Shown here: positions 1,213-37,255 of the stretch, piece after piece
Layout: every line of letters begins with the position of its first letter
Numbering within the stretch: position 1 is the first letter of the stretch
Source of the DNA: Verrucomicrobia bacterium UBA6015
Lineage (GTDB): Bacteria > Verrucomicrobiota > Kiritimatiellia > UBA8416
Reading direction: 5' to 3'
Length of the DNA: 64,000 nt
NCBI GenBank assembly: GCA_002428045.1
Contig: DIZZ01000281.1
Location: 1,634-65,633, forward strand
Made by a program: the position numbers and the translations under genes
Notes under the pieces: model-generated
What the model saw: only the letters and a program-made list of their open reading frames with translations
Database searches by the model: none
What the model was told of the DNA's origin: nothing

Positions 1213-1430
1213 GTTGCATCTCCCAAGTATTAATCAATGGCCTAAATATAGTACTAGATCAGGTACTTGTAAAGGTTTGATTTTTTCCGATCCAGACACG
1301 TTGCTATCCCCGTGAGCTTCTTTGAGGGGATGGTATGTGGTCAAGATCAGGGCACAAGCATAGGGCGCAAGATTAAGGTTGGTTAGCCATACGCGGCTCG
1401 GCGCAGCCTCACCCACTCGTTCCGGGGATC

Positions 1431-3140: not shown

Positions 3141-3200
3141 GCATCGCAATATATAATGATCGCCACCCCTAGGCAAGGTGATTTCCCGAGAAGATGGCGT

Positions 3201-6394: not shown

Positions 6395-6404
6395 GGCATC
6401 CTCG

Positions 6405-10186: not shown

Positions 10187-10298
10187 GGAAGACAGTATGC
10201 AACCGCAAAAACAAAAGGCAACCAGATTTTTCACCTGATTTCTTCACGGCATATTGAACGTGCGCAGGCAGACCGATTAAGCGCACAGGACACAAAAC

Positions 10299-11485: not shown

Positions 11486-14400
11486 ATGAAAAGGATACCC
11501 GCGTGTTTTCTAACCGTTGCATTGATCGCCTCCGGGACACAGGCTCTAGAAGCGCCGGTTACCCTCGGTGTATTCACGGGGGAGGAGGGTGTCTTCGGTC
11601 AGGGCGATCTGGTGCTGCCGATCCATCGCTATGACCAAGGGCTGCTTTTCTTCAATCCGCGGGTATCGGCCAGCGACAGCGATCAGCAGGAAACCAATAT
11701 CGGACTCGGCCTGCGGCAGCAGTTGGATTGGCCCGGTTCGTATATCCTCGGTGCCAACGTGTTCTATGACGGACGCTGGTCGGCCAACAACAACCGTTTC
11801 GACCAGATCGGTCTTGGGCTGGAACTGTTGAGCGACCGGATTGATGCGCGGGCCAACTACTATCTGCCCAACAAGGATATGTACCTGATCGATACCGTCC
11901 GGATGGAATCCGTCGAGCAGTCTGAATTTGTCAGGCGGCACGTCGACAACTGGTTTGAACCCTATGCCACCGGCAACCAGGTGAATCAGGATTACGGATG
12001 GCGCCTGACCACCCAGCGTACGGTGTTCACGGAAACAAGCTGGCAGATTTATGATCGCTACGAATCCGCCCTGGAAGGTTTCGACACCGAGATCGGCTGG
12101 CGGTTGCCGATGCTTGAGGACTGGGGTGAAACCCGCATTTTCGCTGGCTATCAATATTTTGACAATCCTTTCGGTCCTGAATTCAAGGGTGGCAAGGCGC
12201 GCATGGAAGTACGCATGTTCGATGGCTTGCTAACCCTCGACGCCCACGTTTACGAGGATGATGACCTGAACATGACCGACTACCTGGTTGGCATGCGGGT
12301 GCGCCTCCCGCTTGAACCCTCCGGTCTGGCCCTGTGGCGGAACCTGCGTCACCACCGCGTCCGGCAGGGCGGTCTGGCCGAGCGCTTGACGGAGATGGTG
12401 ATGCGCGACCCAAAGGTGCAGTCCCGCGAATCCGGCTACATCGCCGATCCCGATCTGCGTGGAATTGTGGTTGAGACGAAAACGAAGGTCACCCGCAACA
12501 CCCGCACCGATGGAACTGTTGTGGTGATGGAGGATGTTGTGTTTGTCAGCCCCGACGGGAACGATGGGGCTACCGGCACCGCCGAGGATCCGAAGCGGTC
12601 GATCCAGAACGGCGTGAATGCAGCGTACGGTCAGCAGCATGTCTATGTCTTCGGCGGCAACTACAACGAGTCCGTCGTGGTTAATCCGGGTGTGCTGTTG
12701 ATGGGCAGTGGGTGCATGATCCCGGCCAATGGTGGGCATTTCTTCGGGGGCGGTGTGCCGTCGGTGATCGTTGCTCCCGGCTCGGCGCCGGCTGCCGTCA
12801 CCATGCAGGATAATTCATTCGTGGGTGGGTTCGATATCAGCAATCCCGGCGGGCGCGGCATCTATTCCTCCGCCGGGGCACTGGTGATCCGCTGCAATTA
12901 CATCCACAATACGCTGGTCGGCGTGGAGGTCGAGCGGAGCGGCGATGTGGATCTGCTGCTCGCCAACAATACCCTCGCCAATAACACGCAGGACGGTGCG
13001 CGGATCAGTGGTACCGGTGCCAGCGGCACGTACCTAGTCAACGCCAGCGGCAACACGTTTGCAAACAATGGAGAAAACGGGATTTCCCTTTCCGCAGGAA
13101 ATTACGACACGGCCGTCGCCACGCTCGATGACAATACCGCCACCGGGAATGAGACGGGCTTGCGCGTCAGTCTGGATGCCGACGAATTGGCTATGCTGAG
13201 CATTGGCAATACCCGCGCCAACAACAACCGCGGGACGGGAATCCAGGCCAGTGTCTCCGCAGATCAAATGGCGGCTGCGCTGGTGGGGACGCCGCTGATC
13301 GGGGTGGATTCTCTCGGGTTTGAAGAGGCTAAAGTAGAGGGGTCTGACCATCCGTCTCTGGTGATCAGCAGCGCACCGGTTCAGGCCAGCGGCAACGGTG
13401 GCAACGGGATCGATCTTGATGTGCAGAGTGACCTGGTTGGCGCGGCACTACTCTTGGATGTCGAGGCCAGCAACAATGGCGGCCATGGTGCCCATGTCGC
13501 GGTGGATGGCAGCCTGGCAATCGGTTTGGCTGGGGCTTCCGGGAATGTCATGGAGGTCGCGCAGCTCGCGGTCGATCTGATCGAACTCCTTGACACGGAC
13601 ATGGCACTGCCGGAGCTTCCCACCCTGTCCGCCGGACCTTCGGTATTCAGTGGCAACGTCGGCGATGGACTGCTGCTGGATGTGAATTCCGACGTGCTTT
13701 CAATCGGCGTCGTGCTCGGTGCAGAGGCGGACAACAACGGTAACAACGGGCTTGCGATGAATGTCGCCACGGAGGATGGTATGGCCGCCATCGGCCTGAT
13801 GGCCCGATTCGATGCCGCTGGCAATGCGGGGCATGGTGCCGCCATGCAGGTTGACGGCGATTTCCTTGCCGCTGGGGTGCTGCTGGATGGCCGTGTCAGT
13901 GGCAACGGCGATGACGGTGTCGATCTGGACGTATGTAGCAGCGGCATTTCGCTGGGTCTGATCGCCTCGACGGATCCGTTGCGTGCGGTGGCCGATATGG
14001 TCAACACCGAGTTTGATCTCGATCCTCCCGTTGAAATCCAGGGAGAACCCTGGGGGGCCTTTGAAGCAACCGGCAATGCAGGGGACGGCATCCATGCCGA
14101 TATCGTAGGTGACATTGCCGCCATCGGCATCTTCCTGGACATCCAAGCCAACAACAATGGCGGGGATGGTGCTGACCTAACTTTGGATGGCGGCTTGGCA
14201 TCCATCGGGCTGGTGGCCTCAACCGAGAATATCATGGAGGTCGCCCAACTCGGCCTCAATGCAATCGGTCTGTTGGATGAGGATTTGAACCTGCCCGCCC
14301 TGCCCGCGCTGACCTCAGGGCCGGTCGAATTCAACAGCAACGGGGGCGAGGGGCTTGTCCTTGAGGTGGATTCAGGCCTGTTGGCGGTCGGTGCCGTGCT

Positions 14401-16753
14401 GGGTGCCGAGGCGAACAACAACGGCAACAACGGGCTTGAGATGACGGTTGATGCTGCGGAAGGGCTGGCTGCCATCGGCCTGATGGCTCGCTTCAGCGCC
14501 ACGAATAATGCCGATGACGGAGTCGATATGCTTGTCGAGGGTGGCAGTATCGCGGCGGGCGTGCTGCTCGATGGCCAGGCCAATAACAATGGCGACGACG
14601 GTGTCGATATGGGCGTTTACAGCGACGGTATCGCCCTGGGGCTGATCGCCTCGACGGATCCGTTGCGCTCGGTGGCTGGCTTGCTAAGTGATGCGCTTGA
14701 CCTCGATCGTTCCTTTGAAATCCCGGGTGAGCCATGGGGTGCCTTCGAGGCCTCGGGCAATGCGGGGGATGGTATCTATGCCGATATCCATGGAGACGAG
14801 ACCGCCATAGGGATATATCTCGATATCCACGCCAACAATAATGGGCTCTCCGGACTCTTCTCACATATCTATAGCGAAAATGGCAGCGCAATCGGGGTGG
14901 CTGGATCCAGTGATACCCTTTTCGATGTCCTGCCCGTCTTGCTGAGCGGCGACCCGGATGCAGCGCCATTGGATTATACCCCGATGGGGCCGATGATTGC
15001 GTCTGGCAATGGCAGTGGTGGCATCGCTCTTTTCGTTGAGGGACAGAATGCCATCGGCCTGATCGGTGGTACGGTTACCGATGACAACCAGGTGGGAGAA
15101 TTCTCCGGCGCTGGAACCCTGTTATCGGTTTCCGCCGAGTATGACGTGGCCGTCGGCATCGTCTACGATGCAGTTGCCCGCAATAATGCGGAAGATGGGG
15201 TTTCTGTTATTGTCGAGCAGCATGGAGAAGGAGATGCCGTCGCCGCGTTGGTCAATGTTCAGGCGAATGAAAATGGTCAAGATGGCATCCTTGCCCAAGT
15301 GCAATCGGAAGACGCCGCCTTTGTTCTCATGGCTGGGATTGATGCGCACGACAACGAGGGTCATGGTATCGGTGCCGAAGCGATTGCCGCTGGCGATGTC
15401 GGCATGGCATTCACCGCCGTTGACAGCAGTGGAAACGGAATGGCTGGCTTGATGGCGCTTGCCGTGTCCGGGGTCGACAGCAATATGGTCGTCGGCGTAG
15501 GGGCGCGGGCGGGTGGGTTGCTTGCTGAAGTGAATACGAATCAAGCCAATATATATGTCGGGGAAACAGCACTCGACGATCTGCGTGATGAGTTTGGTAA
15601 TAGCCTTCCTTTCGGCGACAGCCTGTACGCCCTGATGCCGACAGGAACCTGCACCTTTAGCGAGAACGAAGTTGGGGCCATGCTCGGTGCTGTTGCGATG
15701 GGGCACGGCGATGCTACCGTGGTGGTGTCGGGTAGCGAGTTTTCGGCTAACGAGATGCTTGGGTTGTACACCATGGCGATGGCGGAGGAAGGCGATGCCG
15801 CGATTGTCGCGATGGATAACGAGTTCGTGGATAACGGCGGGGATGGAATGAGTGCCAGGGCACGGACGCAGATTGGCGATGCTGCGGTTATTGCGGTTGA
15901 GAACGAATTCGCCAATAACCAGGATGCCGGACTGAATGCATACGCTAGAGTTTCGCTCGGTGAATCCATCGTGTTGGCTGATGGGAATAGCGCAACGGGG
16001 AACGAGGTTGGCATAACGGCATTAGCGGGGAATCAGTTCGGTGTTGCGGCTGTGGTTCTGGAGGAGAATCAGGTCACCGGCAACAACAGTGACGGTGTGC
16101 GCGTCCGTGCCGAGAGCGATGACGGCGATGCGGTGGTGGTGGCTGGCGAGAATGAGTTCTCGGATAACGGTGCGAATGGCATGATGGCCTTGGCCCGTAC
16201 GAGGCGGGGCGATGCTGCCGTCATCGCGGTTGATAACAGCATGTCCAATAACGGCGAGAATGGTATGATGGTCCTGGCGCGGACGCGGCGGGGCGATGCC
16301 ACTGTGCAGGCGGAAGTGAACGATTTTTCGGGTAACGGGAACGATGGGATGGTGGCCATGGCCAGGGCACGGCGCGGGGACGCTGTAGTGCGGGTTTTTG
16401 AGAACACGGCCAGCAACAACGGTGACGATGGGCTGATGGTGCATGCGCAGGCCGTCACCGGGGATGCCACGGCGCGAGTGCGGGGTAATACAACCAACGA
16501 TAACGGGGACGACGGGGTGTTTGCCAGTGCACTGACTGAAACCGGCGATGCCACGACACGGGTGCGGTTGAACACGGCCAACAACAATGGCGGTGACGGT
16601 TTGGTCAGCGAGACGCAGACCGATGTGGGCGATGTCACGGCGATCATGAACAACAACACGGCGACCAACAACGCGGGCAACGCGCTGTCATTGACGGCGA
16701 CCGTGATTACCTCCGGAACGATCACGTACGAGATGAACAACAATACCTTCTAA
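11486..16753 (+). CDS. Giant surface protein (1755 aa): inverse-autotransporter-like N-terminal beta-barrel plus right-handed beta-helix repeat passenger
   Basis: RBS AAAGGAG and a signal peptide MKRIPACFLTVALIASGTQA. Paired glycine motifs NIGLGLRQQLDW...GANVFYDGRW...IGLGLELLSDRIDARANYYLP resemble the intimin/invasin (IAT) barrel. Two ~240-aa near-identical tandem units follow, then many ~22-aa GDAxVxxxxNxxSNNGxDG repeats. Confidence 0.6.
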   Translation: MKRIPACFLTVALIASGTQALEAPVTLGVFTGEEGVFGQGDLVLPIHRYDQGLLFFNPRVSASDSDQQETNIGLGLRQQLDWPGSYILGANVFYDGRWSANNNRFDQIGLGLELLSDRIDARANYYLPNKDMYLIDTVRMESVEQSEFVRRHVDNWFEPYATGNQVNQDYGWRLTTQRTVFTETSWQIYDRYESALEGFDTEIGWRLPMLEDWGETRIFAGYQYFDNPFGPEFKGGKARMEVRMFDGLLTLDAHVYEDDDLNMTDYLVGMRVRLPLEPSGLALWRNLRHHRVRQGGLAERLTEMVMRDPKVQSRESGYIADPDLRGIVVETKTKVTRNTRTDGTVVVMEDVVFVSPDGNDGATGTAEDPKRSIQNGVNAAYGQQHVYVFGGNYNESVVVNPGVLLMGSGCMIPANGGHFFGGGVPSVIVAPGSAPAAVTMQDNSFVGGFDISNPGGRGIYSSAGALVIRCNYIHNTLVGVEVERSGDVDLLLANNTLANNTQDGARISGTGASGTYLVNASGNTFANNGENGISLSAGNYDTAVATLDDNTATGNETGLRVSLDADELAMLSIGNTRANNNRGTGIQASVSADQMAAALVGTPLIGVDSLGFEEAKVEGSDHPSLVISSAPVQASGNGGNGIDLDVQSDLVGAALLLDVEASNNGGHGAHVAVDGSLAIGLAGASGNVMEVAQLAVDLIELLDTDMALPELPTLSAGPSVFSGNVGDGLLLDVNSDVLSIGVVLGAEADNNGNNGLAMNVATEDGMAAIGLMARFDAAGNAGHGAAMQVDGDFLAAGVLLDGRVSGNGDDGVDLDVCSSGISLGLIASTDPLRAVADMVNTEFDLDPPVEIQGEPWGAFEATGNAGDGIHADIVGDIAAIGIFLDIQANNNGGDGADLTLDGGLASIGLVASTENIMEVAQLGLNAIGLLDEDLNLPALPALTSGPVEFNSNGGEGLVLEVDSGLLAVGAVLGAEANNNGNNGLEMTVDAAEGLAAIGLMARFSATNNADDGVDMLVEGGSIAAGVLLDGQANNNGDDGVDMGVYSDGIALGLIASTDPLRSVAGLLSDALDLDRSFEIPGEPWGAFEASGNAGDGIYADIHGDETAIGIYLDIHANNNGLSGLFSHIYSENGSAIGVAGSSDTLFDVLPVLLSGDPDAAPLDYTPMGPMIASGNGSGGIALFVEGQNAIGLIGGTVTDDNQVGEFSGAGTLLSVSAEYDVAVGIVYDAVARNNAEDGVSVIVEQHGEGDAVAALVNVQANENGQDGILAQVQSEDAAFVLMAGIDAHDNEGHGIGAEAIAAGDVGMAFTAVDSSGNGMAGLMALAVSGVDSNMVVGVGARAGGLLAEVNTNQANIYVGETALDDLRDEFGNSLPFGDSLYALMPTGTCTFSENEVGAMLGAVAMGHGDATVVVSGSEFSANEMLGLYTMAMAEEGDAAIVAMDNEFVDNGGDGMSARARTQIGDAAVIAVENEFANNQDAGLNAYARVSLGESIVLADGNSATGNEVGITALAGNQFGVAAVVLEENQVTGNNSDGVRVRAESDDGDAVVVAGENEFSDNGANGMMALARTRRGDAAVIAVDNSMSNNGENGMMVLARTRRGDATVQAEVNDFSGNGNDGMVAMARARRGDAVVRVFENTASNNGDDGLMVHAQAVTGDATARVRGNTTNDNGDDGVFASALTETGDATTRVRLNTANNNGGDGLVSETQTDVGDVTAIMNNNTATNNAGNALSLTATVITSGTITYEMNNNTF
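13460..14850 (+). repeat. Intragenic tandem duplication (2 x ~690 nt) inside the giant adhesin gene
   Basis: Protein unit A (ASNNGGHGAHVAVDGSLAIGL...GIFLDIQ) aligns along its full length with unit B (ANNNGGDGADLTLDGGLASIGL...GIYLDIH). The DNA units start at ~13462 and ~14150. Confidence 0.6.
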
Positions 16754-16841
16754 GCCTGACGGGTGACCGCCGAAGTGAAATTCCCCCGTTCCCCGAAACT
16801 AGATCTTGTTTTGAGATCAAGGGTTGGGTATATATGCGCGC

Positions 16842-19304
16842 ATGAGAAATAGCAAATGTATTGATTTTGGCTGGCGCTTTGCGTTGGGGGATTTTCCATC
16901 GGCCATCGCGGCGACGTTTGATGACTCGGCGTGGCGTGTATTGGATCTGCCGCACGATTGGTCGATTGAGGCGACTCCCCATCCGGATCATCCGTCCGGT
17001 GCCACGTGTGGTTTTTTCCCCGGTGGCTTGGGCTGGTATCGTAAGCGGATCGATATCCCCGCCGACCTAGGGAGCCGTCATGTGTTGATCGAATTCGACG
17101 GCGTTTACATGAACAGCGAGGTCTGGTGCAACGGGCAGTTCTGTGGCGTGCGCCCCTACGGCTACAGCAGCTTTTGCTATGACCTGACACCGTTCGTCAA
17201 GGCGGGTGAACCGGCCTCGATTGCTGTGCGGGTCGATAATTCGCGTCAGAAGAATTCGCGATGGTACAGTGGGTCCGGCATCTATCGGCATGTCTGGTTG
17301 ACCGTGGCCGAGGCGTTGCGGGTCGACCACTGGGGCACGTTCGTCACCACCCCCGAGGTCAACGAGGACAAGGCCACGGTGGATTGTGCCGTGACGCTTT
17401 TGAACCAAGGGACAGACGCGGATGATGTACAGGTGCTTGCGTCCATTCAGGACGAGACAGGGACGCTGGTGGGCGAATCGGCGCAGATGGGACTGTGCTG
17501 CCCGAAGGGGCGGCATGAACTCCGCATCAGGTTGGGGGTTCCAGCCCCACGCTGCTGGTCACCGGATTCGCCGGTGCTCTATACCTTGCGGGTGGACGTC
17601 CGCAAGCAGGGTGTGCCCGTGGATGCCTATGATACCCGATTTGGCATCCGCACGATCCGTTTTGATGCCGATCAGGGGTTTTTCCTTAATGGTCAGGTGC
17701 TGAAATTGCGGGGGGTCAATGAGCACCACGACGCGGGTTGCCTGGGGGCTGCGATTCCTGATGACGCCCTGCGCCGCCGGTTGCGCATTCTCAAGGAGAT
17801 GGGCTGTAACGCCATCCGGATCGCTCACAATCCGGCATCTCCCACGTTGCTTGACCTGTGCGACTCGTACGGGTTCATGGTGGTCGAGGATGCGTTTGAT
17901 GAATGGCGTGACGGCAAGACGCCGTTCGGCTACCAGCTTTACTGGGACCAGTGGTGGGAGCGGGATCTGGCAGACATGATCCGCCGCGACCGTAATCACC
18001 CCTGCATTGTAATGTGGTCAGTCGGTAATGAAATCAAGGAAGTGCGCCAAGGCAGGGCCGAGGGGCTTCCGATCATGAAGGCTTTGCGCGAGGTCTGCCA
18101 TCGCGAGGATCCGACCCGCCCCATGACCTGTGGCTGCTGCAACTCGCGCGAGACGCTGGAGGCAGGCTATGGCGAGCTGATGGATGTGTTTGGCTATAAC
18201 GGGGGAGGGGGTGGCTGCTTCGACTATGAGAAGGATCATGCCGCGTTTCCCGGCATGCCGATGTTTGCGTCGGAGCATCCCCACACGCTCCAGACCCGAG
18301 GTGTGTATCGGACGAAGACCTGGTACCGCGATCTTCACCGCAACCAGGGTAATGTTCGCTGGTATCCATCGCCTCGCGGAGAGGCTCCCTCGCACGATCT
18401 TACGCCGGATGCGCAGAAGGATCGTCCGCTGCTCGATCTCATGCATATTCCCGATCTTACGACGGATGAGGTTTTCGACGGTATCGATCCGCATTACCAG
18501 TCCTCTTATGGCAATGCCATTGTGCGCATGTCGATATTTGATTCCTGGTACCGCACGCGTACCCTGCCGTATTTCTGCGGGGAGTTCCGGTGGACAGGTT
18601 TTGATTACCTTGGCGAATGCTATGCGTGGCCCGCGAAAAGCTGGAATTTCGGGATCATCGATCTCTGCGGTTTCCCGAAGGATGCCTACTATTTCTGCAA
18701 GAGCCAGTGGACAACGGTGCCCATGGTGCATATCCTGCCGCACTGGACCTGGCCGGGGCTCGATGGCGTGACGATTCCTGTGCTTTGCTACAGCAACTGT
18801 GAGCGGGTGGAACTGTTTCTTGACGGGGTGTCGCTGGGGGTGCAGGTGCGGGATGACCGGTTGATGCAGAGTCGCTGGCATGTCGCCTACCGTCCCGGTG
18901 TGCTTCGTGCCGTAGGCTACGTTGGGGATGCCGCCGTGGCGGTTGATGAGCATCAAACGGCAGGGAGCCCGGCCGCCATCCGTGCCGTTAGCGACGAGAC
19001 GGTGATCCGAGCCGACTGCACCGGCATTGCCCATGTAGCAATCACGGTCGTGGATGCGCAGGGGCGTTTCGTGCCCTTTGCCAGTCACGACATTACCGTG
19101 ACGGTCGAGGGGCCTGCCCGCCTGGTCGGTGTTGAAAATGGCGATCCGCTTGACAGTACCAACTACCGGTTGGCCCATCGCAAGGCCTTCAACGGGATGC
19201 TGTTGGCGATACTCCAGTCCACCGATACCGCCGGGGCGATAACGGTCTCGGCAACGTCCGACGGACTGACCACCGGCGTTTGCCGAACGATCCAGAGTCG
19301 CTAA
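16842..19304 (+). CDS. Glycoside hydrolase family 2 (beta-galactosidase/beta-glucuronidase-like)
   Basis: N-terminal sugar-binding domain (FGWRF...DDSAWRVLDLPHDWSIE), a NEHHD TIM-barrel region and WSVGNE (catalytic acid/base motif). First ATG used; no obvious SD. Confidence 0.8.
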   Translation: MRNSKCIDFGWRFALGDFPSAIAATFDDSAWRVLDLPHDWSIEATPHPDHPSGATCGFFPGGLGWYRKRIDIPADLGSRHVLIEFDGVYMNSEVWCNGQFCGVRPYGYSSFCYDLTPFVKAGEPASIAVRVDNSRQKNSRWYSGSGIYRHVWLTVAEALRVDHWGTFVTTPEVNEDKATVDCAVTLLNQGTDADDVQVLASIQDETGTLVGESAQMGLCCPKGRHELRIRLGVPAPRCWSPDSPVLYTLRVDVRKQGVPVDAYDTRFGIRTIRFDADQGFFLNGQVLKLRGVNEHHDAGCLGAAIPDDALRRRLRILKEMGCNAIRIAHNPASPTLLDLCDSYGFMVVEDAFDEWRDGKTPFGYQLYWDQWWERDLADMIRRDRNHPCIVMWSVGNEIKEVRQGRAEGLPIMKALREVCHREDPTRPMTCGCCNSRETLEAGYGELMDVFGYNGGGGGCFDYEKDHAAFPGMPMFASEHPHTLQTRGVYRTKTWYRDLHRNQGNVRWYPSPRGEAPSHDLTPDAQKDRPLLDLMHIPDLTTDEVFDGIDPHYQSSYGNAIVRMSIFDSWYRTRTLPYFCGEFRWTGFDYLGECYAWPAKSWNFGIIDLCGFPKDAYYFCKSQWTTVPMVHILPHWTWPGLDGVTIPVLCYSNCERVELFLDGVSLGVQVRDDRLMQSRWHVAYRPGVLRAVGYVGDAAVAVDEHQTAGSPAAIRAVSDETVIRADCTGIAHVAITVVDAQGRFVPFASHDITVTVEGPARLVGVENGDPLDSTNYRLAHRKAFNGMLLAILQSTDTAGAITVSATSDGLTTGVCRTIQSR

Positions 19305-19332: not shown

Positions 19333-20895
19333 ATGCCGGATTCCAGACCCAACATCCTGTTCATCATGTCGGACGATCATGCCGCCCAGGCGATCTCCGC
19401 CTATGGTTGCGGGATTAACCAGACGCCCAACATTGACCGGATTGCAGCCAAGGGTGCGATCTTGAACCATTGCTATGTGAACAACAGCATCTGTACCCCC
19501 AGCCGGGCGGCGATCTTGACGGGCACGCATAGTCATGTGAACGGCGTCATTACCTTGGATACCCCCTTCAACAACCACCTCTCGCATGTTGCAAAGCACT
19601 TGCAGGCGGCGGGATACCAGACCTCAATGATCGGCAAATGGCATCTGGGCGAAGGGCCGGAGCACTCCCCGACGGGCTTCGATCACTGGTCGGTCCTGCC
19701 GGATCAGGGGGACTATTTCGATCCGTATATGATTGAGAACGGACGGCACATCCAGGAGATGGGCTATGCCACAGAAATCATCACGGAGAAATGCGTCGAT
19801 CAGATCCGCCAGCGCGACAAGGACCGTCCGTTCTTCATGATGTGCCACCACAAGGCCCCGCACCGCCCCTGGCTGTATCACCCGAAATACGAGCACCTCT
19901 ACAACGAGGAAATCCCGTATCCACCCTCCTTCAAGGACGATTATGCCAACCGGGCCAAGGCGGCCGTCCATGCCCGCATGCGGGTTGAATCGGACATGAC
20001 CTATCTGGATCTTGACCTGGTGCAGCCCTATATTCCGGCCGAGGGGCAGGAGTATTCCGACATTGGCTGCAAGACGGGCCTGATGATGGTTCCGTTTCCG
20101 AAAACACCGGAAGCCTACCGCGACTTCAAGCTGATCTGCCGCCGCACGGGGCAGGTGTTCACCTTTGCCAACAGCGAGGAATTGAAGCGTTTCAAGTACC
20201 AGCGCTACATGCAGAAATACTTGCGCACCGTGGCCTCGATCGACGAGAGTGTGGGTCATCTGCTGGACCTGCTGGAGACCGAGGGGATTGCCGATAACAC
20301 GATCGTGATCTATACCTCAGACCAGGGCTTCTTCCTGGGTGAGCATGGGTGGTACGACAAGCGCTTCATCTACGAGGAGTCTTTTCGCATGCCGTTCCTA
20401 GTCCAGTATCCGCAACGCATCAGGAAAGGCATCACGGTCAATGCCATGGCCAGCAATGTTGACTTCGCCCCCACCTGGCTTGACTATGCCGGGGTGCCGG
20501 TGCCGTCTTACATGCAGGGCTATAGCTTGCGGTGCGTTCTGGAGGGAGACGAGCCCGCAAGCTGGCAGAAGACAGCCTACCACCGCTACTGGATGAACCA
20601 GGACTGCAACCACAATGCCTACGCGCATTACGGGATCAGGGATCATCGCTACAAGCTGATCTACTGGTACAATGAGCCGATGAACCTGCCGGGGGCAACG
20701 GCAGCTACGTTTGCCGAGAAGGACTGGGAGCTATTCGACCTGCAGGAGGATCCGCTTGAGCTGAACAACTGCTTCCATGATCAGGACAAGAAGGATGTGG
20801 TCATCCACATGCTCCGGCTGCTCGATGAAAAGCAGACGCAGATCGGCGATGTTCCGGCGCATGACTCCAGGACGGTGCTGGCCATGCTTGGCTGA
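19333..20895 (+). CDS. Cys-type sulfatase (arylsulfatase family)
   Basis: ILFIMSDDHA and the formylglycine signature CTPSRAAILTG. RBS AAGGAG. Confidence 0.85.
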   Translation: MPDSRPNILFIMSDDHAAQAISAYGCGINQTPNIDRIAAKGAILNHCYVNNSICTPSRAAILTGTHSHVNGVITLDTPFNNHLSHVAKHLQAAGYQTSMIGKWHLGEGPEHSPTGFDHWSVLPDQGDYFDPYMIENGRHIQEMGYATEIITEKCVDQIRQRDKDRPFFMMCHHKAPHRPWLYHPKYEHLYNEEIPYPPSFKDDYANRAKAAVHARMRVESDMTYLDLDLVQPYIPAEGQEYSDIGCKTGLMMVPFPKTPEAYRDFKLICRRTGQVFTFANSEELKRFKYQRYMQKYLRTVASIDESVGHLLDLLETEGIADNTIVIYTSDQGFFLGEHGWYDKRFIYEESFRMPFLVQYPQRIRKGITVNAMASNVDFAPTWLDYAGVPVPSYMQGYSLRCVLEGDEPASWQKTAYHRYWMNQDCNHNAYAHYGIRDHRYKLIYWYNEPMNLPGATAATFAEKDWELFDLQEDPLELNNCFHDQDKKDVVIHMLRLLDEKQTQIGDVPAHDSRTVLAMLG

Positions 20896-21044
20896 CGTCG
20901 CCTTTGTCTTTTGCTAGAGCCCTAGTCTGCAAGGTGATAAAAAATTCAAAGAATTGTTGAAGACATCGCCAACGAGAAGCGTATATAGGGTAAGCGTGCC
21001 GATTTTGGCCGTGTTTGTTTCGTTCGCATGAAGGGGAGATCACC

Positions 21045-24000
21045 ATGAAAAAGTCGATTGTGTGTGCGTTGATGCTGCCGTTGTTGTCGTTGCAGGCGGC
21101 CGATGGGAATGACCTGGAGTTCATGGAGGCGTTTGCCTGGGGGGATCGCGCCGCCGCCCTCGCCCAGCTGGTGCCCGATACCGAGGACTATTTTTTCTAC
21201 CATTGCCTGAGCTATCAGCTTGCCGGCAATCGCGACGCCTTCCAGAAGACGTTGGATAAGTGGGTCTCGCGCAACCGCAATCAATGGAACGAGCGGATGA
21301 GCGAGATGCGGCGGCGCCAGATGCTACTTGATATGGATCGCTCGCCCGAGGCGGTCTGGGCGTTTCTCAAGCAGGATGCCGGGCTGTCCTTTTCGCACCG
21401 CGCCCGCCATGAGCAGACCAGCCAGCGCCAGCCTTCGGTCATCAAGCCGGAGCAATACAGCCTGGCCGCCTTCTGGCGGCAGCACGCGAATTCCGAACTC
21501 GATAAACTCACCGATCGCGGGCTTGAACTACTGCCCGATCCGAATGGCAATCCGGATGTTCGCCGGGCTTTCCTGCGCCGTTTGCAGCGTCCGGATTATC
21601 CCGGACTGGTCACGCTGATCCTGGCGGATCTGGACTATAAGGAACAAAACGGCAATATCACGATCTTTGGGCAGATTCCGATCCACAACCAGCTTACGAC
21701 GGATCAGTTGGTAGACCTCGCAACGCAGCGCCCGGCCCTGCTGCGTGAGGCCGACTATGTGAATGCACGGCTGGCGAGGATGCCGCTGCCGGATGCCGAC
21801 CTAGCGAATGATTCCGCCGCTGCCGTGACGTATCTGGAGGGGCTGTGGCGTTTCGTCGGCCCGCTTGAGCCGATGCATAATTCGCTGAAGGCGAATGTGT
21901 TGTATAACATGCTCGCGCATCAGCGTAAACTGGGTGTCTACGATTCCAGCCGATTCCTTGCCTATCTGGAGTTGCCGCGCCATTCCGGTTATATGCAGCG
22001 CGACCGGATGTCGCGCCTGCAACGGGAGCGGGCGATCTGGGTGGATGTGAATTACACCCCCTTCGTGCAAATCAGCCTGCCGCCGATCGGGGACGACGAA
22101 CCACTGGTGCGCGAGTTCCTGATTGAACTGTTGAAGGATGCCGAGGATGCGTCGCGCTTCCAGGACCTCTTCGAGGCCCGCTGGCTGGATGCGGTGTTTG
22201 CCGAGAGCAAGATCCTGCATGGTGTCGGTACCCCGGCGCAATGGTCCTCGCGGCTGGGGCCGGATGCCTACCGATCCCTGTTGGAGCGCATCGAACTGGA
22301 TTTCGCCCCGCAGAATCCCGCCTATTTCAAGCCGGGACAGCCCGTGGAGCTGGCCGTGGACGTGAAGCGGGTGGACAAGCTGCTGGTCAAGGTCTTCGAG
22401 ATCCAGACCTTCAACTACTACACCACCCGGCAGACGGCGATCGACCAGGCCGTGGAGCTGGATGGCATGATCGCCTCGTCTGAGCGCACGGTCGATACGG
22501 TGGCCGAGCCGTCGCGCCGCATGCGGCACCGGATCGCGCTACCGGAAATCAAGACTCGCGGTGTCTATGTCGTCGAGCTGATCGGCAATGGCGTCAGTTC
22601 GCGCGCCCTGCTGTATGTCGGTCACCTTGAGGCCATCAGCCAGGAGACCCCGGCGGGTCTGGCTGTCATGGTCTTGAACGAGGCGGGAGAAACGGTCAAG
22701 GATGCCGCCGTCTGGGTCGATGGGCGCGAGTACAACGCCGGTGACAAGGGCTTGGTGCTGCTGCCGTTCACGGATACCCCGGGTAGCCGCTTCGCCGTGC
22801 TGCGCAGCGGCGATTTCTGCAGTGCGCAGCAGCTCTATTTGCCGGAAGAGGTGTATGCTTTTTCCGCCGGTATCCATCTGGATCCCCAGAACCTGCCGCG
22901 CCAGCATCGGGGTCTGCTGATCCTGCGTCCCGATTTCCGCATCCATGGCATACCGCTTGACCCCGCGCTGCTGGGGGAGGTCAAGGTGACGCTGACCGCT
23001 GTCGATGCCAAGGGCGTCAGCACGGCCCGCGAGTTCAAGGCCACCTTCGCCCGCAACACTGAATGGACGGAATCCTTTTATGTGCCCGATGCCCTGCGCA
23101 GTCTTTCGGTCGCTGTCGAGGCAAAGCTGAAACGCAAGCGGGATCTTGAGGAAATCACCCTGAACGATCAACGGCGCGTGGACCTGAATCCGGCGCGTGG
23201 CGGGGATACACTCAGCCAGGTGTTCCTGGTGCCAGCCGCCGATGGCTGGCGTCTTGAGGTGCGCGGACTGAGCGGCGAGCCGATGGAGGCGGTTCCGTTG
23301 TCCTTGGAGTTGAATCATCCCGGATTCAATCGTTCCGTATCGATCCAGGCCAGCACCGACGCCGACGGCGTGGTTGTCCTGGGGCCGCTGACGGCACTGT
23401 CGCGGATTACCGTCGCAGGGCCGGGGAACTTGCGGCTGGATCGCGTTCTAACAGGGGCGGAAGTGGTATGGCCTGAGTTGCTGCACCTCAAGGCAGGCGA
23501 GATCGTTTCGCTGCCGTACCCGCAAGACCGTCATGTGGATCTTCGTCAGGTTTCGCTATTCAGACAGCGTGGCGAAACGATTTTAGCCGATTGCTCGGCG
23601 TTGGTCACGCTCAAGGATGGGGAGCTGCGGATCGAGGGCATGGAGCCGGGGCAATACCAGCTCGTGTCACATGAGAACGACCGTCGCATCCGGCTGGATG
23701 TTGCCGAGGCCGAGGCAGGCTCCGGGTATCTGCTCGGGAAAACCTCGCGCTGGCAGCAGACGGGTAATCGCCTGCCGTCGGTGGCGGAGGTATCAGAAAA
23801 GGAAGGCACCTTGCGCCTGCGCCTGCGCAACGTGACAACGGGCACCCGTGTCGCGGTACGGGTGGCGCGCTATGTCGATCCGGAATCGGCATTTCCAGAG
23901 GGCTATGGCTTCACCTCGCCGGTCAAGCGCGGCATGCTGCCTCCCTATGCCCAGTATGCCAATGGACGTCGTATCGGCGATGAATACCGCTATGTGCTGG

Positions 24001-27000
24001 AGCGGCGTTCGCTCGAGAAATTCGCAGGCACCCTGCTGGAGCGTCCCGGCCTGATCCTCAATCCATGGGAACTGCGCGAGACCACCACCGAGCAGGAACG
24101 GCTGAAGGGCGATCAGGACTATGCATCCGCACGGCAGGCCATGGCGGATGCCTCCGTCGAAACGGGACTGTCCGTGTATGGGGGGGCGGGTAGCGGAGTC
24201 GGGGGGCGGGGCCAGTCCGTTGACATCGGTTACGACTTCCTGCCGCAGGGCAGTCAATGGGTTCTGAACGCCGTCCCGGACAAGGATGGCGTGGTGACAA
24301 TCCCGCTCGGCGGCGCGCCGGAACATACGATGCTGGATATCGTGGTGCTCGACCGGTTCGGGCTTAGTCAGTTCCGGCATCTGCGTCCTTACCAGACGTT
24401 CACGCCCGTCGATCAACGCCTGCTTAGCGGACTGAAGCCGGATGCGGCCTTCAGTCGTCAAAAGCGCATCCGGTCACTGGCTGCCGGGGAGCAGGTGACT
24501 TTTTCCGATTCTGCGACGACCCGCTACCGAGCCATCACGACGCTGGGCCAGGCCTTCGATCTGCTGCAGGTGCTTAGCGGTAACGCCACCGTGCTGGAGT
24601 TCGCCTTCCTCAAGAACTGGCCCGGTCTGGATGAGGCCGCCAAACGCGAGAAGTACGGCAAGTATGCCTGCCACGAGGTCAACATTTTCCTGTCCCAACA
24701 CGATCCGGACTTCTTCAAACGGGTGATCAAACCCGCCCTGGCCTGCAAGAAGGATAAGACCTTTGTAGACCGCTGGCTGCTGGAGACCCTGACCACCGAG
24801 GATCTTCGGCTGGACCGTTTGCAGCAGCGCAATGCGCTGGAGCTGGCCCTGCTGGCGAAGCGTGGCGGCGATGCCCGCCAGATGCAGGCGGCCCTGCGCG
24901 AGGCGTGGGAGCTGCTGCCCCCCAATCCCGATGCATTTGCCCGGCTTGTACGTACCGCCTTGCAATCGGGCGATCTGGACAAGCCGGTTGACGGTTTTGG
25001 ATCTGCGGAAGACGAAATGATCGTTGAGGAAGCCAAGGACAAGTCGCTGGAGATGAAGAAGTTGGCACTGAGACCGAGTTCGCGTAGGCTGAATGGAGCG
25101 GGTGGATTGACTGAAGCGAGCAAATCAGACGCTGTGCCCATGGAGGAGAGGGACGCGATGATGGCCCCGTCCGCTGCGCCCGCCTCCGAGGCGGCCCTCA
25201 GTTTCGCAATGGCCGAGGCGACAATGGACGTCTCAGAGTCTGAGGGCGCGGATGGCGTGGTCCTGTTTGAAATGACTGCGGATACGTTTGCTGGTGAGGC
25301 GGTCCGCCTGTACCGGGCGTTGCCGCCGACCAAGGAATGGGCCGAGCAGAACTACTACCGTGTGCGGGCCGCAGAGGATCTGCCCGCGCGGCTTTCCGCG
25401 AATGCGTTCTGGCTGGATGTAGCCAGCGGCAAGGCACTGTCCGCGAACCTGCTGGAGGCGCATCGCCATCTGACCGATGTCATCACGGCGCTGGCGTTCT
25501 GTGGCCTGCCGTTCGAGGCGCAGCCCGTGGCCGAGACGACCGGCACGAACGGCCTGACCCTCGCGGCTGCCTCTCCCGTGCTGCTGGTGACGGAGCAGGT
25601 CCTGCCCGCGCCGGTGGCGGCGGATGACCGTCCGCTGCTGATCGCGCAGCAGTTCTTCCGGCCCGATGACCGCTATCGTTTTGAGGGCAACGAGCAGATC
25701 GAGAAATTCATCAGCGGCGAATTCGTGCGGCGCGTGGTGTATGGCGGACGCGTCACACTGACCAATCCCACGGCCTCGCGCCGCGTGCTCAACGTCCTGC
25801 GGCAACTGCCGCTGGGGGCGATCCCGCTACGCAACGGCGTGATGACCGATGATGGCGTGGTGCGGCTGGAACCCTACACCACCGAGAAGATCGAGTATTT
25901 CTTCGTCTTCCCGTTCGCGGGTCAATTCAGCCAGTTCCCGGCCCAGGCGGCCGCTGGCGAAAGTGTGGTCGGCCGGGCCGAGGCACAGGTGTTCAACGTG
26001 GTGAACGAGCCGACCGAGGTGGACAAGACTTCCTGGGCCTGGATCTCTCAATATGCACCGGCCGACGATGTGCTGGCGTTCCTCGGCAAGGAAAACCTGC
26101 GGCGGCTCGATCTCGGTGAGATCGCCTGGCGGCTCAAGGACCGCGGTTTCTTCACAAAGGCCTGCGATCTGCTCGCGTCGCGTGGGCTGTTCCATGACAC
26201 GACCTTCTCGTACAGCGTCCACCACAAGGATGCAGACCGCGCCCGCCTCTGGCTGGCCCGCAGCAGCCTGGCTGGCAGGGTAGGCCTGGTGCTGGAGTCG
26301 CCGTTGCTGAAGGTCGATCCGGTCGAGGCGAAGGTTTATGAGCATCTGGAGTACGATCCGCTGGTCAATCCGCGGGTACACCCCGTCGGCGAAAAGCTCA
26401 AGATCCTCAACACGGCGCTGGATGCCCAGTACCGAGCCTTCCTGAGGACGGCGGCCTACCGGGCGGAATTGCCAGCCAGCCAACGGCTGGCACTGGTGTA
26501 TTACCTGCTGTTGCAGGACCGGCTGGCCGATGGGTTTGCGGAACTGGCGAAGATCAACGACAAGGATCTGCACGAGACGGTGCAGGTGGATTACCTTCGC
26601 GCCTGGGTGGCGCTGCGCCAGCTTGATGTCAAGCGCGCCGCAAAGCTGGCTGAAGCGTACAAGGATTATCCGCTGCCTCGCTGGCAGTCGCGTTTCCGCG
26701 CCCTGACCCAGGCGATTGCCGAAGCGCAGGGGGCGGAGGTCGCCGGGCTGGATGAACCCAACCGCCAGCAGGATCTCGACCAGCAGGCGGAGCAATCGCC
26801 CTCGCTGGACCTTGCGGTGGAAACCGGCAAGCTCTGGCTGACCGCTTATGCGGTGGGCGAGGTGACGCTGAATCTCTACCCGATGGACATCGAGCTCATG
26901 TTCAGCCGCAAACCGTTCCTTTCGGAAGGGGCGACCGATTTCGCGGTGATCCGTCCGGCCTTGTCACAGACGCTCAAGATCAAGGCCAACGGCGAGCCCG

Positions 27001-27371
27001 AGGAGCTGACGCTGCCGGCGGATTACGCCAAACGCAACCTGATGGTGGAAGTCGTGGGCAAGGGACGGCGTGCGGCGACGGCCTGGTACGCCAACCAGTT
27101 GCGGGTGCGCCTGATCCAGGATTACGGGCAGATCGAGGTCCGCTCCGCGGCGGATGGAAAGCCGCTGCCGACGACGTATATCAAGGTCTTTGCACGGGGA
27201 ACGAATGGACGCGAGCAGTTCTGGAAGGATGGCTACACCGATTTGCGCGGACGCTTCGACTACCTGTCCCGCAATGATCGCAAGCCCGAGGAGGCGGTGG
27301 AATTCTCCATCCTCGTCCTGCATCCGGAGCTAGGCGCCGAAATCCAAAACGCCACCCCGCCCGCCCGGTGA
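21045..27371 (+). CDS. Giant secreted protein (2108 aa), function unknown; possibly alpha-2-macroglobulin-like architecture
   Basis: RBS AAGGGGAG and a signal peptide MKKSIVCALMLPLLSLQA. A long beta-rich region with MG-like segments is followed by an alpha-helical module (~res 1650-1900) and a C-terminal beta domain. No CxEQ thioester motif found. Confidence 0.65.
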   Translation: MKKSIVCALMLPLLSLQAADGNDLEFMEAFAWGDRAAALAQLVPDTEDYFFYHCLSYQLAGNRDAFQKTLDKWVSRNRNQWNERMSEMRRRQMLLDMDRSPEAVWAFLKQDAGLSFSHRARHEQTSQRQPSVIKPEQYSLAAFWRQHANSELDKLTDRGLELLPDPNGNPDVRRAFLRRLQRPDYPGLVTLILADLDYKEQNGNITIFGQIPIHNQLTTDQLVDLATQRPALLREADYVNARLARMPLPDADLANDSAAAVTYLEGLWRFVGPLEPMHNSLKANVLYNMLAHQRKLGVYDSSRFLAYLELPRHSGYMQRDRMSRLQRERAIWVDVNYTPFVQISLPPIGDDEPLVREFLIELLKDAEDASRFQDLFEARWLDAVFAESKILHGVGTPAQWSSRLGPDAYRSLLERIELDFAPQNPAYFKPGQPVELAVDVKRVDKLLVKVFEIQTFNYYTTRQTAIDQAVELDGMIASSERTVDTVAEPSRRMRHRIALPEIKTRGVYVVELIGNGVSSRALLYVGHLEAISQETPAGLAVMVLNEAGETVKDAAVWVDGREYNAGDKGLVLLPFTDTPGSRFAVLRSGDFCSAQQLYLPEEVYAFSAGIHLDPQNLPRQHRGLLILRPDFRIHGIPLDPALLGEVKVTLTAVDAKGVSTAREFKATFARNTEWTESFYVPDALRSLSVAVEAKLKRKRDLEEITLNDQRRVDLNPARGGDTLSQVFLVPAADGWRLEVRGLSGEPMEAVPLSLELNHPGFNRSVSIQASTDADGVVVLGPLTALSRITVAGPGNLRLDRVLTGAEVVWPELLHLKAGEIVSLPYPQDRHVDLRQVSLFRQRGETILADCSALVTLKDGELRIEGMEPGQYQLVSHENDRRIRLDVAEAEAGSGYLLGKTSRWQQTGNRLPSVAEVSEKEGTLRLRLRNVTTGTRVAVRVARYVDPESAFPEGYGFTSPVKRGMLPPYAQYANGRRIGDEYRYVLERRSLEKFAGTLLERPGLILNPWELRETTTEQERLKGDQDYASARQAMADASVETGLSVYGGAGSGVGGRGQSVDIGYDFLPQGSQWVLNAVPDKDGVVTIPLGGAPEHTMLDIVVLDRFGLSQFRHLRPYQTFTPVDQRLLSGLKPDAAFSRQKRIRSLAAGEQVTFSDSATTRYRAITTLGQAFDLLQVLSGNATVLEFAFLKNWPGLDEAAKREKYGKYACHEVNIFLSQHDPDFFKRVIKPALACKKDKTFVDRWLLETLTTEDLRLDRLQQRNALELALLAKRGGDARQMQAALREAWELLPPNPDAFARLVRTALQSGDLDKPVDGFGSAEDEMIVEEAKDKSLEMKKLALRPSSRRLNGAGGLTEASKSDAVPMEERDAMMAPSAAPASEAALSFAMAEATMDVSESEGADGVVLFEMTADTFAGEAVRLYRALPPTKEWAEQNYYRVRAAEDLPARLSANAFWLDVASGKALSANLLEAHRHLTDVITALAFCGLPFEAQPVAETTGTNGLTLAAASPVLLVTEQVLPAPVAADDRPLLIAQQFFRPDDRYRFEGNEQIEKFISGEFVRRVVYGGRVTLTNPTASRRVLNVLRQLPLGAIPLRNGVMTDDGVVRLEPYTTEKIEYFFVFPFAGQFSQFPAQAAAGESVVGRAEAQVFNVVNEPTEVDKTSWAWISQYAPADDVLAFLGKENLRRLDLGEIAWRLKDRGFFTKACDLLASRGLFHDTTFSYSVHHKDADRARLWLARSSLAGRVGLVLESPLLKVDPVEAKVYEHLEYDPLVNPRVHPVGEKLKILNTALDAQYRAFLRTAAYRAELPASQRLALVYYLLLQDRLADGFAELAKINDKDLHETVQVDYLRAWVALRQLDVKRAAKLAEAYKDYPLPRWQSRFRALTQAIAEAQGAEVAGLDEPNRQQDLDQQAEQSPSLDLAVETGKLWLTAYAVGEVTLNLYPMDIELMFSRKPFLSEGATDFAVIRPALSQTLKIKANGEPEELTLPADYAKRNLMVEVVGKGRRAATAWYANQLRVRLIQDYGQIEVRSAADGKPLPTTYIKVFARGTNGREQFWKDGYTDLRGRFDYLSRNDRKPEEAVEFSILVLHPELGAEIQNATPPAR

Positions 27372-27571: not shown

Positions 27572-27880
27572 ATGAGTGCCAACATTGAGGATCTTATGGC
27601 CTTGTTGGGCGAGCGGATACGCGAGTTGAGGCTGCGAGAAAATATTGCCCAGACTGTGCTGGCGATGCGGAGTGGTGTTTCACTGAAGGCCGTGAAGAAT
27701 CTGGAAAATGGCACCGGAGCGACCGTTTCTTCATTGCTGCGGGTGTTGCGTACCTTGGGTCGGAACGAGTGGATTGAGACGCTTGGTCCCAAGGTCGGCA
27801 TCAGTCCTATGCAGATGGTGAACCGCAGAAAAACGCGCCTGCGGGCGACACGAAAAAAGACCGGGGTGGCTGATGTATAA
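27572..27880 (+). CDS. hipB: HipB-like XRE-family HTH antitoxin
   Basis: Helix-turn-helix region (IAQTVLAMRSGVSLKAVKNLENG). It overlaps the downstream HipA-like gene by 8 nt. Confidence 0.7.
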   Translation: MSANIEDLMALLGERIRELRLRENIAQTVLAMRSGVSLKAVKNLENGTGATVSSLLRVLRTLGRNEWIETLGPKVGISPMQMVNRRKTRLRATRKKTGVADV

Positions 27881-29144
27881 GCCGGTCAATCTCGTTGAAG
27901 TCTGGATCTGGGGAGCGCGTGTCGGGGCTGTCGCCAAGGATCCGCGAACTGGATTCTATGCGTTTGAATATGATCCCCGATTTGTTCGCACAGGCATTGA
28001 ATTGGCGCCGCTTTTCATGCCGATCCGGAGGGCAAATCAACCGTTTGTTTTTCCGGACTTGCCCGAAGAAAGCTATCATCGCCTCCCGGCGCTCCTTGCC
28101 GATGCGCTGCCGGATTCCTTCGGTAATATCCTGATTGATGCATGGATGGCAGAGCAGGGCATCGAACGGAGTCGGATCAGCGTTCTGGATCGCCTGGCGT
28201 ACATGGGAAAGCGAAGCATGGGCGCACTGGAATTCAAGCCCGTGATCGGACCGAAGGAGAAGACCCCCACCGCGATTGAGCTCTCCTCGCTTGTGGAAAG
28301 CGCACGGAGGGCTGTTTATGGCGACTTAGGAATAGATGCTCGCACGGATGCGGCGTTGCACCAGTTGATGCAGGTGGGCACGTCCGCTGGCGGAGCACGG
28401 GCCAAGGCTGTGATCGGATGGGATCGCAAGAATCGAAAACTCTGCTCCGGGCAGTTCGATGTTCCTGATGGCTTTGAGCACTGGATCATCAAATTCGACG
28501 GTGTCGGGGATACGCCCAATGCGACGCAGGATTCAGGACGGGTGGAACTGGCTTATCACAACATGGCTCGGGCAGCAGGCATTACAATGATGGAGTGCGA
28601 TCTGTTTTGCCATGATGGACGCGCACACTTCATGACCCGGCGGTTCGACCGTGACGGCAACACCAGGCATCATCTGCAGACCCTCTGCGCGATGGCACAT
28701 CTATCTTTTCATCAGCGGGCTGCCTATAGCTATCACCAGCTCTTCGAGACCGTCAATGAGCTCGGGATGGACTACGCCACCCGCGAAGAGGTTTTCCGTC
28801 GCATGGCCTTCAACGTCTTGGCTAGAAATACCGATGACCACAGTAAAAATGTCTCGTTTCTCTTGAAACAGGGTGGGGGGTGGGAGCTTGCGCCCGCATA
28901 TGATCTCACCTACTCCTATACGCAGGTTGGCGAATGGAATGAGTGGGCGAACCCCCGGGTGATGGCAGTCAGCGGGAAATTCTCGAACATCACCGCCAAG
29001 GATCTGCTGGAGGTGGCTGAGCAATTCGGCATCGGAACCGCACGGCGGGAACTGGATCGTGTCATGGATGCTGTCCGTCGCTGGCCGACATTTGCCGACG
29101 CTGCCAGCGTGACAGACGAGAACGTGATACAAGCCCTAATCTAA
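27873..29144 (+). CDS. hipA: HipA-family Ser/Thr kinase toxin
   Basis: HipA N-terminal (VWIWGARVG) and C-terminal kinase regions (HWIIKF...ARNTDDHSKNVSF...YDLTYSY). Confidence 0.8.
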   Translation: MYKPVNLVEVWIWGARVGAVAKDPRTGFYAFEYDPRFVRTGIELAPLFMPIRRANQPFVFPDLPEESYHRLPALLADALPDSFGNILIDAWMAEQGIERSRISVLDRLAYMGKRSMGALEFKPVIGPKEKTPTAIELSSLVESARRAVYGDLGIDARTDAALHQLMQVGTSAGGARAKAVIGWDRKNRKLCSGQFDVPDGFEHWIIKFDGVGDTPNATQDSGRVELAYHNMARAAGITMMECDLFCHDGRAHFMTRRFDRDGNTRHHLQTLCAMAHLSFHQRAAYSYHQLFETVNELGMDYATREEVFRRMAFNVLARNTDDHSKNVSFLLKQGGGWELAPAYDLTYSYTQVGEWNEWANPRVMAVSGKFSNITAKDLLEVAEQFGIGTARRELDRVMDAVRRWPTFADAASVTDENVIQALI

Positions 29145-37104: not shown

Positions 37105-37255
37105 TGAGGTGCCCGCCGAGCTCATTTACTGCCACCGGACCGGAATGCTCCGGTTACGTCATCTCGTGTACGAAGCGCCCAGTTTCGATATCGTCTGCAA
37201 GTGCCGTTCAAAACAATTGCAGAACACCGCCGGTCTGTGGCAATATCCACCCACT

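Follow-up and report, generated by a model that had tools for sequence, protein, structure and literature searches.

An exported macroglobulin-fold protein of a large, previously undescribed family in PVC bacteria, with a possible role in protease handling

RESULTS

The gene and its locus

We analyzed a stretch of 64,000 nucleotides (here called the window) from contig DIZZ01000281.1 of Verrucomicrobia bacterium UBA6015 (assembly GCA_002428045.1), concentrating on a forward-strand gene at positions 21045 to 27371. The gene spans 2,108 codons plus the stop, as delimited by the list of open reading frames (ORFs) and by 147 full-length homologs. It encodes an exported protein of a large, previously undescribed family that has no Pfam or NCBIfam annotation. 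Its predicted structure is dominated by β-sandwiches of the macroglobulin (MG) type, and in several lineages its relatives adjoin genes for exported protease inhibitors. We tentatively propose that this family handles proteases in the cell envelope.

The ATG at 21045 is preceded at a distance of 6 nt by a Shine-Dalgarno sequence, AAGGGGAG (21031 to 21038, forward strand), which reads as a strong ribosome-binding site. An alternative start, TTG at 21015, lies ahead of the ATG in the same forward-strand frame, which ends with the stop at 27371. Residues 1 to 18, MKKSIVCALMLPLLSLQA (21045 to 21098, forward strand), have the features of a typical Sec signal peptide of the signal peptidase I type, with predicted cleavage between MKKSIVCALMLPLLSLQA and ADG. 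No other segment is hydrophobic enough for a further membrane span (maximum KD-19 score, 1.39), and the mature protein has a computed mass of 233.7 kDa and a pI of 5.7. An earlier inspection of this DNA that used the letters and their ORFs only (the sequence-only reading) had described a 2,108-aa secreted protein in an adhesin/GH2/sulfatase locus, and both parts of that description hold. A promoter and terminator scan around the gene gave nothing exceeding shuffled expectation.

Three genes precede ours on the forward strand, in the order inverse-autotransporter adhesin (11486 to 16753), GH2 (16824 to 19304), and sulfatase (19333 to 20895), and the gaps from GH2 and the sulfatase to our gene are short. 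The adhesin heads this same-strand run; it has 1,755 aa and an N-terminal inverse-autotransporter β-domain (IAT_beta; E = 3e-15) and no other Pfam match. Directly 3' of our gene lies a HipBA toxin-antitoxin module, consisting of a HipB-like helix-turn-helix gene and HipA (27572 to 29144, forward strand), and then, on the opposite strand, an AAA_14/DUF4143 ATPase. This HipBA/ATPase stretch may be a mobile or defense-type insertion that breaks synteny with the ecotin-linked relatives described below.

A large family without annotation

The full-length homologs reach down to 32% identity, range from 2,008 to 2,310 aa (mostly ~2,100 aa), and are all labelled "hypothetical." Length is nearly constant across phyla, at about 2,070 to 2,160 aa. 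An exhaustive phmmer search with the C-terminal half of the protein retrieved 3,013 representatives (50% clustering), of which 1,112 had an E value of ≤1e-30. Given these homologs, the ORF is a real gene and not a chance reading frame. Relatives are encoded in at least 588 GTDB species genomes. Most belong to the Planctomycetes-Verrucomicrobia-Chlamydiae (PVC) group (Planctomycetota, Verrucomicrobiota, Lentisphaerota, and Kiritimatiellia), with a smaller share in Ozemobacteraceae/Riflebacteria and in metagenome-assembled genomes (MAGs) of Desulfobacterota. Sec-type signal peptides are the rule across the family N termini, and a lipobox-like motif was found in 12 of 227.

Scans of the protein against Pfam, NCBIfam, and PADLOC returned no significant match. 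From PDB sequences, neither the protein by itself nor the family profile retrieved more than noise (best E value, 0.25, to Rad4). Literature searches found no paper or database entry that describes the family or a serpin/ecotin genomic context for it.

Predicted architecture

We obtained two AlphaFold2 models from a 56-sequence alignment. One covers aa 1 to 1160 (mean confidence [pLDDT], 85; predicted template modelling score [pTM], 0.77), and the other covers aa 1000 to 2108 (pLDDT, 78; pTM, 0.67). All coordinates in this section are on the forward strand. In the N-half model, a 390-aa α-solenoid resembling tetratricopeptide repeats (TPR; aa 24 to 414; 21114 to 22286) leads into six MG-like β-sandwich domains, D1 to D6 (aa 417 to 976; 22293 to 23972). 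A hinge motif of invariant or near-invariant columns, GDEYRYxLERR...RPGLxLNPWxLRxT, follows (aa 978 to 1013; 23976 to 24083); it has low pLDDT in the N-half model and forms a strand in the C-half model. The chain then enters a hypervariable disordered segment (aa 1014 to 1063; 24084 to 24233; pLDDT, 30 to 45), a candidate bait-like loop that across the family is unconserved in sequence, 43 to 86 aa long (median, 45), and rich in A, G, R, and E.

β-Sandwich D7 (aa 1064 to 1164; 24234 to 24536) is followed by a helical bundle, H1 (aa 1167 to 1312; 24543 to 24980; pLDDT above 90). H1 carries an invariant YACHE motif (H1210 and E1211) and is among the most conserved blocks of the family (entropy, 1.19). 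A second hypervariable disordered segment comes next (aa 1313 to 1428; 24981 to 25328; pLDDT about 30). It is likewise unconserved in sequence, with 82 to 130 aa (median, 105), gaps of up to 47%, and a composition rich in A, R, E, G, and P. Both segments sit at fixed positions and keep a constrained length within an otherwise strongly conserved chain. Beyond them lie a small α/β unit with β-sandwiches D8 and D9 (aa 1429 to 1653; 25329 to 26003), which include the conserved motifs TxEWAENNYY, FWRD, and TNPTS. Helical module H2 (aa 1664 to 1917; 26034 to 26795) has 14 helices, a β-hairpin insert, and many invariant aromatic and acidic residues. The C-terminal end is formed by β-sandwiches D10 and D11 (aa 1920 to 2103; 26802 to 27353), which include KDGYTDLRGRFDY, the most conserved block of the whole protein. 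Among the invariant residues of the family are S519, H1210, E1211, and D1242.

The models agree with the sequence-only reading in its β-rich MG-like segments, in its helical module of ~250 aa near the C terminus, which is H2 and which it had taken for a module like a thioester domain (TED), and in the β domain placed after it. Of the alpha-2-macroglobulin (A2M)-like architecture that it had proposed, the MG-like folds are supported; the 390-aa N-terminal domain, the bundle at aa 1167 to 1312, and the two disordered segments had escaped it.

Such high pTM values favor a compact assembly over a beads-on-a-string stalk. They bear directly on the idea of an extended surface adhesin, with a role akin to that of the neighboring inverse-autotransporter protein, which we consider extremely unlikely. 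The β domains are not repetitive (hhalign found no significant internal pair; best probability, 35%), and the protein has no anchor or secretion-system signal. Moreover, its sequence and length are strongly conserved, unlike those of adhesins, and the adhesin neighbor is not conserved across loci. An S-layer or adhesin identity was thus rejected on compactness and conservation.

Comparison with alpha-2-macroglobulins

The array of MG β-sandwiches expected of the A2M/complement proteins is present in the models, with about 11 domains. Three successive β domains of the N-terminal half superpose on A2M, A2Moo, TEP1r, and CD109 (275 to 281 aa, 5.0 to 6.1 Å), and A2M is the top fold match of the MG-like part. 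C4 and C3 are among the top fold matches of the C-half model. A fold comparison, one of the checks suggested by the sequence-only reading, places A2M-type β domains among the best matches. GH2 β-sandwich enzymes also appear among the structural matches. For the helical modules, the PDB Foldseek search was uninformative, since C3b and GH2 enzymes both gave long co-linear alignments with similar scores.

At the level of sequence, the protein was compared with the Pfam models MG2, MG3, MG4, A2M, A2M_BRD, bMG1-10, and A2M_recep. MG4 alone gave a match, at an E value of 0.079, below the cutoff. CUB_A2MG matched neither the protein nor any of 23 diverse members scanned. Conversely, the controls were recognized easily. 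The A2M of Escherichia coli (ECAM) matched 11 A2M Pfam families, has CLEQ at position 1187 and the lipobox LALAGC, and adjoins pbpC. A planctomycete A2M from one of the family loci (L045) matched 6 A2M-specific families (TED_complement at 3.5e-42, MG2, MG3, A2M, BRD, and A2M_recep), and precomputed A2M domains are present in every one of its 120 listed relatives. In hhalign, the family profile aligned to ECAM with a probability of 0.1%, and the large helical module aligned to the TED region with 0.2%.

As the sequence-only reading had noted, the protein has no CxEQ thioester motif. CxEQ occurs in 2 of 120 homologs, at non-homologous positions. The AAGEQ at aa 1146 to 1150 was considered as a thioester remnant and rejected: it sits in a β domain (D7), in a column that is not conserved in homologs. 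No pbpC gene was found beside ours; the only penicillin-binding protein of the window is a class-B one, PBP2, encoded about 19 kb away within the mreBCD-rodA cluster. When E. coli PbpC was searched with phmmer against the window's ORFs and those of 85 family loci, no match was returned, so the PBP1c-like partner that might have been expected for a bacterial A2M did not appear. Similarly, a mag-type context was not seen, with no conserved neighbor family in 85 and then 166 loci, as judged by neighbor clustering and not by MagA-F models.

The A2M family, as currently defined, does not include this protein, because the Pfam, hhalign, hmmsearch, PBP1c, and mag tests fail while the controls pass. 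The sequence-only reading had left a choice between a thioester-less A2M-like protein and an entirely different giant surface protein. The former does not hold in the family sense, with no A2M Pfam domain and profile-profile probabilities of at best 34 to 59%, over one MG motif; the latter is set aside by the MG-like folds. The protein represents a separate macroglobulin-fold family.

One could still suppose a true A2M of extreme divergence, Type II-like and thioester-less. The MG-like folds with A2M as top match, the weak MG motif matches (MG2 at an E value of 0.0072; D4 in hhalign), and a variable segment after six β domains, in the position of the bait region after MG6 in A2M, would all fit. 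We judge this highly unlikely. The TED is absent, the A2M, BRD, CUB, and bMG models fail where canonical A2Ms of the same phyla match easily, three extra helical modules are present, and no mag operon or PBP1c was found. Furthermore, the two kinds of protein can coexist: the L045 and L015 genomes each encode a recognizable A2M and a family member.

Protease inhibitor genes beside family members

We surveyed 166 family loci, with 1,299 flanking ORF slots, for inhibitor genes. A serpin or ecotin gene is present in 8 loci, and in 8 of 8 it directly abuts the family gene on the same strand; none occurs at any other of the flanking slots. Ecotin (PF03974) lies directly downstream in L004 (Kiritimatiellaeota B1221) and L009, whose family proteins are 54% identical to ours over the full length; the B1221 homolog MDF3129324.1 is encoded in an operon that includes ecotin. 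A serpin lies directly downstream in L013/L104, L015, and L102, directly upstream in L161, and after two tandem family paralogs in L017. The serpin Pfam E values range from 1e-113 to 1e-120. The gaps between inhibitor and family gene run from -25 to +157 bp, all pairs are co-directional, and all the adjoining serpins and ecotins carry signal peptides. Since the inhibitor-linked family proteins are at most 52% identical between lineages, they represent about 5 lineages, with at least 3 distinct arrangements.

Given their presence in a locus, the chance that all inhibitors would adjoin the family gene is about 1e-3, a value into which the rarity of these genes is not counted. A first neighbor clustering, over 85 loci, gave no conserved partner, the serpin cluster being present but small; over 166 loci, this cluster is the most position-consistent neighbor family overall. 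Housekeeping genes make up the remaining neighbors in the inhibitor-carrying loci, and proteases are not encoded there. In L017 (6932 to 20403), the two paralogs are 52% identical over the C-terminal 900 aa and 3 bp apart, and the serpin ORF after them is truncated to 141 aa; it may be a pseudogene or an assembly frameshift.

A2M genes adjoin the family gene in two loci, L015 and L045. The former (30 to 21849 of contig CAMBQN010000023.1, a verrucomicrobial MAG labelled "Akkermansia muciniphila") is an apparent anti-protease island on one strand. Its order is an A2M-like gene, a 300-aa ORF of no known function, the family gene, the serpin, an extracytoplasmic function (ECF) sigma factor, and a second A2M-like gene. 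The first A2M-like protein has 1,781 aa and matches MG2, bMG3, BRD, A2M, and bMG10, with no TED match. In L045, an operon of an ECF sigma factor and a canonical A2M is divergent from the family gene; here (1314 to 6689, reverse strand), the planctomycete canonical A2M stands directly after the ECF sigma gene. The alignment of A2Ms of this type has a consensus N terminus with an anti-sigma-like HxxxCxxC motif, and JGI names some of them "anti-sigma factor RsiW." These features suggest an A2M fused to an anti-sigma factor, which might act as an ECF switch that senses proteases; the N terminus of the L045 A2M gave no significant match to Pfam zf-HC2.

Other regulatory or enzymatic neighbors were noted. 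A planctomycete locus, L006 (5919 to 14246), has a tight co-directional unit of ECF sigma factor, 470-aa zf-HC2 anti-sigma factor, and family gene, and in L001 an ECF sigma gene is divergent from the family gene. Linkage to ECF sigma genes in general (adjoining in 6 of 85 loci) was rejected, as we judged it no more frequent than expected by chance in PVC genomes. In L169 (the P0029 locus), a DUF1570 protein (4401 to 5816, reverse strand) divergently adjoins the family gene; DUF1570 may be part of a clan of metallopeptidases.

The classic layout of a protease-inhibitor operon likewise has the inhibitor gene co-directional and immediately downstream, as in the staphopain/staphostatin-type pairs of a protease and its cognate inhibitor. 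The family might accordingly consist of novel giant proteases, each restrained by such an inhibitor, and invariant Ser, His, Asp, and Glu residues (S519, H1210, E1211, D1242, and others) are at hand. However, ecotin targets chymotrypsin-fold proteases, and protease folds, S1 and S8 included, appear in neither model. Protease motifs and Pfam matches are likewise absent, and about 95% of members lack an adjoining inhibitor. A giant protease is in our view highly improbable.

The neighborhood of our own gene raises a different possibility, namely that the protein is an accessory of polysaccharide utilization, either a carbohydrate-binding protein or a novel enzyme, acting with the upstream GH2 and sulfatase. 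It lies on their strand after short gaps, H2 has invariant aromatic and acidic residues, GH2 β-sandwich enzymes are among the fold matches, and a sulfatase gene lies within two genes in 13 of 166 loci. These sulfatase neighbors are, however, mixed in orientation and position and occur at the frequency expected by chance in sulfatase-rich PVC genomes, for which reason sulfatase linkage was rejected. Synteny is lost even among close relatives, the partner of members that lie in Fpg/ThrRS housekeeping contexts is a serpin, and no carbohydrate-active enzyme, carbohydrate-binding module, or α/α-barrel fold was detected. A polysaccharide role thus appears distinctly unlikely.

Other genes of the window

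Elsewhere in the window, a 607-aa protein (37109 to 38932, forward strand) joins a caspase domain (Peptidase_C14) to an FGE-sulfatase (formylglycine-generating enzyme-like) domain, and a second, stand-alone FGE-like gene lies at 59484 to 60290. Two reverse-strand paralogs (1431 to 3176 and 8471 to 10234) combine AAA-ATPase_like and PD-(D/E)XK (PDDEXK_9) domains. A family-B DNA polymerase with DNA_pol_B and exonuclease domains (53442 to 55679, forward strand) comes right after LptD and RNase E/G, downstream of the mreB-mreC-PBP2-rodA cluster.

DISCUSSION

The reading that we prefer, at a probability of roughly 40%, is that the protein is a macroglobulin-fold, non-covalent anti-protease protein of the envelope, acting as a trap or a shield. 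A role in envelope protease handling is suggested by its MG-like fold, export, compactness, and two bait-like loops, together with the operonic pairing of family members with two unrelated classes of exported inhibitor. According to this model, a Sec-exported soluble protein of ~234 kDa would reside in the cell envelope or periplasm. Once an intruding serine protease had engaged or cut an exposed variable loop, the cage of MG domains would bind or sterically trap it without a covalent bond. Classical inhibitors (serpin, ecotin, and A2M) would act alongside and would be co-transcribed in some lineages. The sequence-only reading had likewise pictured an A2M-type protease trap. The protease-related gene context, with serpin, ecotin, and A2M genes adjoining family members, speaks for that part of it, and the Pfam or profile homology and the PBP1c or mag partner that A2M kinship would entail are missing.

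Several results weigh against an anti-protease role. Pfam A2M domains in the 23 diverse members gave sporadic single sub-threshold matches only, among them MG4 and bMG3 in single members. The family profile aligned to a 35-sequence A2M profile with a probability of 34% over 35 columns; domain by domain, the best value was 59%, for D4 and for one domain only, and a search of the family hidden Markov model against 35 A2Ms reached an E value of 0.25 at best. The TED, an α/α barrel of about 300 aa, is absent from the protein, which also has no thioester and no recognizable CUB or BRD. Nothing in A2M corresponds to the three helical modules, for which the anti-protease reading does not account. As for gene context, an inhibitor adjoins the family gene in about 5% of loci only, and most family genes stand alone among unrelated neighbors in either orientation. 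In the window itself, the neighbors are GH2 and the sulfatase upstream and HipBA downstream, none of them an inhibitor gene.

The main alternative is a protease-sensitive envelope scaffold, which could explain some of the same observations. Its TPR solenoid and immunoglobulin-like array would form a ruler or a platform for interactions, and serpin and ecotin would merely shield its disordered loops. The nearly constant length across phyla, the compact domain packing (pTM, 0.77), a TPR-like domain typical of protein-protein interaction, the solitary position of most family genes, and the co-directional, exported inhibitors all agree with it. Yet the protein has no membrane anchor, lipobox, peptidoglycan-binding domain, or sorting signal, and structural envelope proteins usually have conserved partners, of which none was seen in the family loci. 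A scaffold would also leave unexplained why the closest folds are those of A2M and complement and why A2M genes cluster with the family. We regard it as unlikely.

An anti-protease role could be extended to the family as a whole. Its members would then form a third class of bacterial macroglobulin-like traps of about 230 kDa, without TED or thioester and fused to α-solenoids. Such proteins would act non-covalently in the periplasm, with their loops as baits, and would belong to an anti-protease defense along with serpin, ecotin, and canonical A2M, possibly feeding ECF-sigma signalling. This wider proposal is a doubtful one. Should the anti-protease role itself be correct, a testable function would be gained for a conserved "hypothetical" protein that ranks among the largest in PVC bacteria. 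It would apply to no fewer than 3,000 sequence clusters and to hundreds of species, among them abundant marine and soil polysaccharide degraders. Macroglobulin-type defenses of bacteria would extend past the two known classes, and an MG cage would be seen to work without a thioester domain. In addition, periplasmic anti-protease islands (A2M, serpin or ecotin, a protein of this type, and an ECF sigma factor) would occur in free-living bacteria and not in host-associated ones alone. Even with the mechanism wrong, the family is a well-defined annotation target.

Relation to known systems

The Type I A2Ms of bacteria (ECAM/YfhM and Salmonella SaA2M; PDB 4u48, 4ziu, and 4zjh) have a TED, CxEQ, a lipobox, and a pbpC neighbor, whereas our protein is without all four. 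It is about 450 aa longer and has an extra 390-aa TPR-like domain and two helical modules. The Type II A2Ms (Pseudomonas aeruginosa MagD and E. coli YfaS) share with it the absence of the thioester. MagD and YfaS are, however, recognizable as A2Ms by sequence and are encoded in the six-gene mag operon, whereas the present family has neither conserved neighbors nor an A2M signal at the sequence level. MagD traps its protease non-covalently after bait cleavage (PMC5764988), and non-covalent trapping is the mechanism that we propose here. To eukaryotic A2M, C3/C4/C5, TEP1, and CD109, the likeness consists in the superposing MG-like β domains. Finally, serpins and ecotins differ from our protein in fold and size, and it contains no serpin or ecotin domain; as exported, co-directional partners of family members in about 5 lineages, they suggest a shared anti-protease theme.

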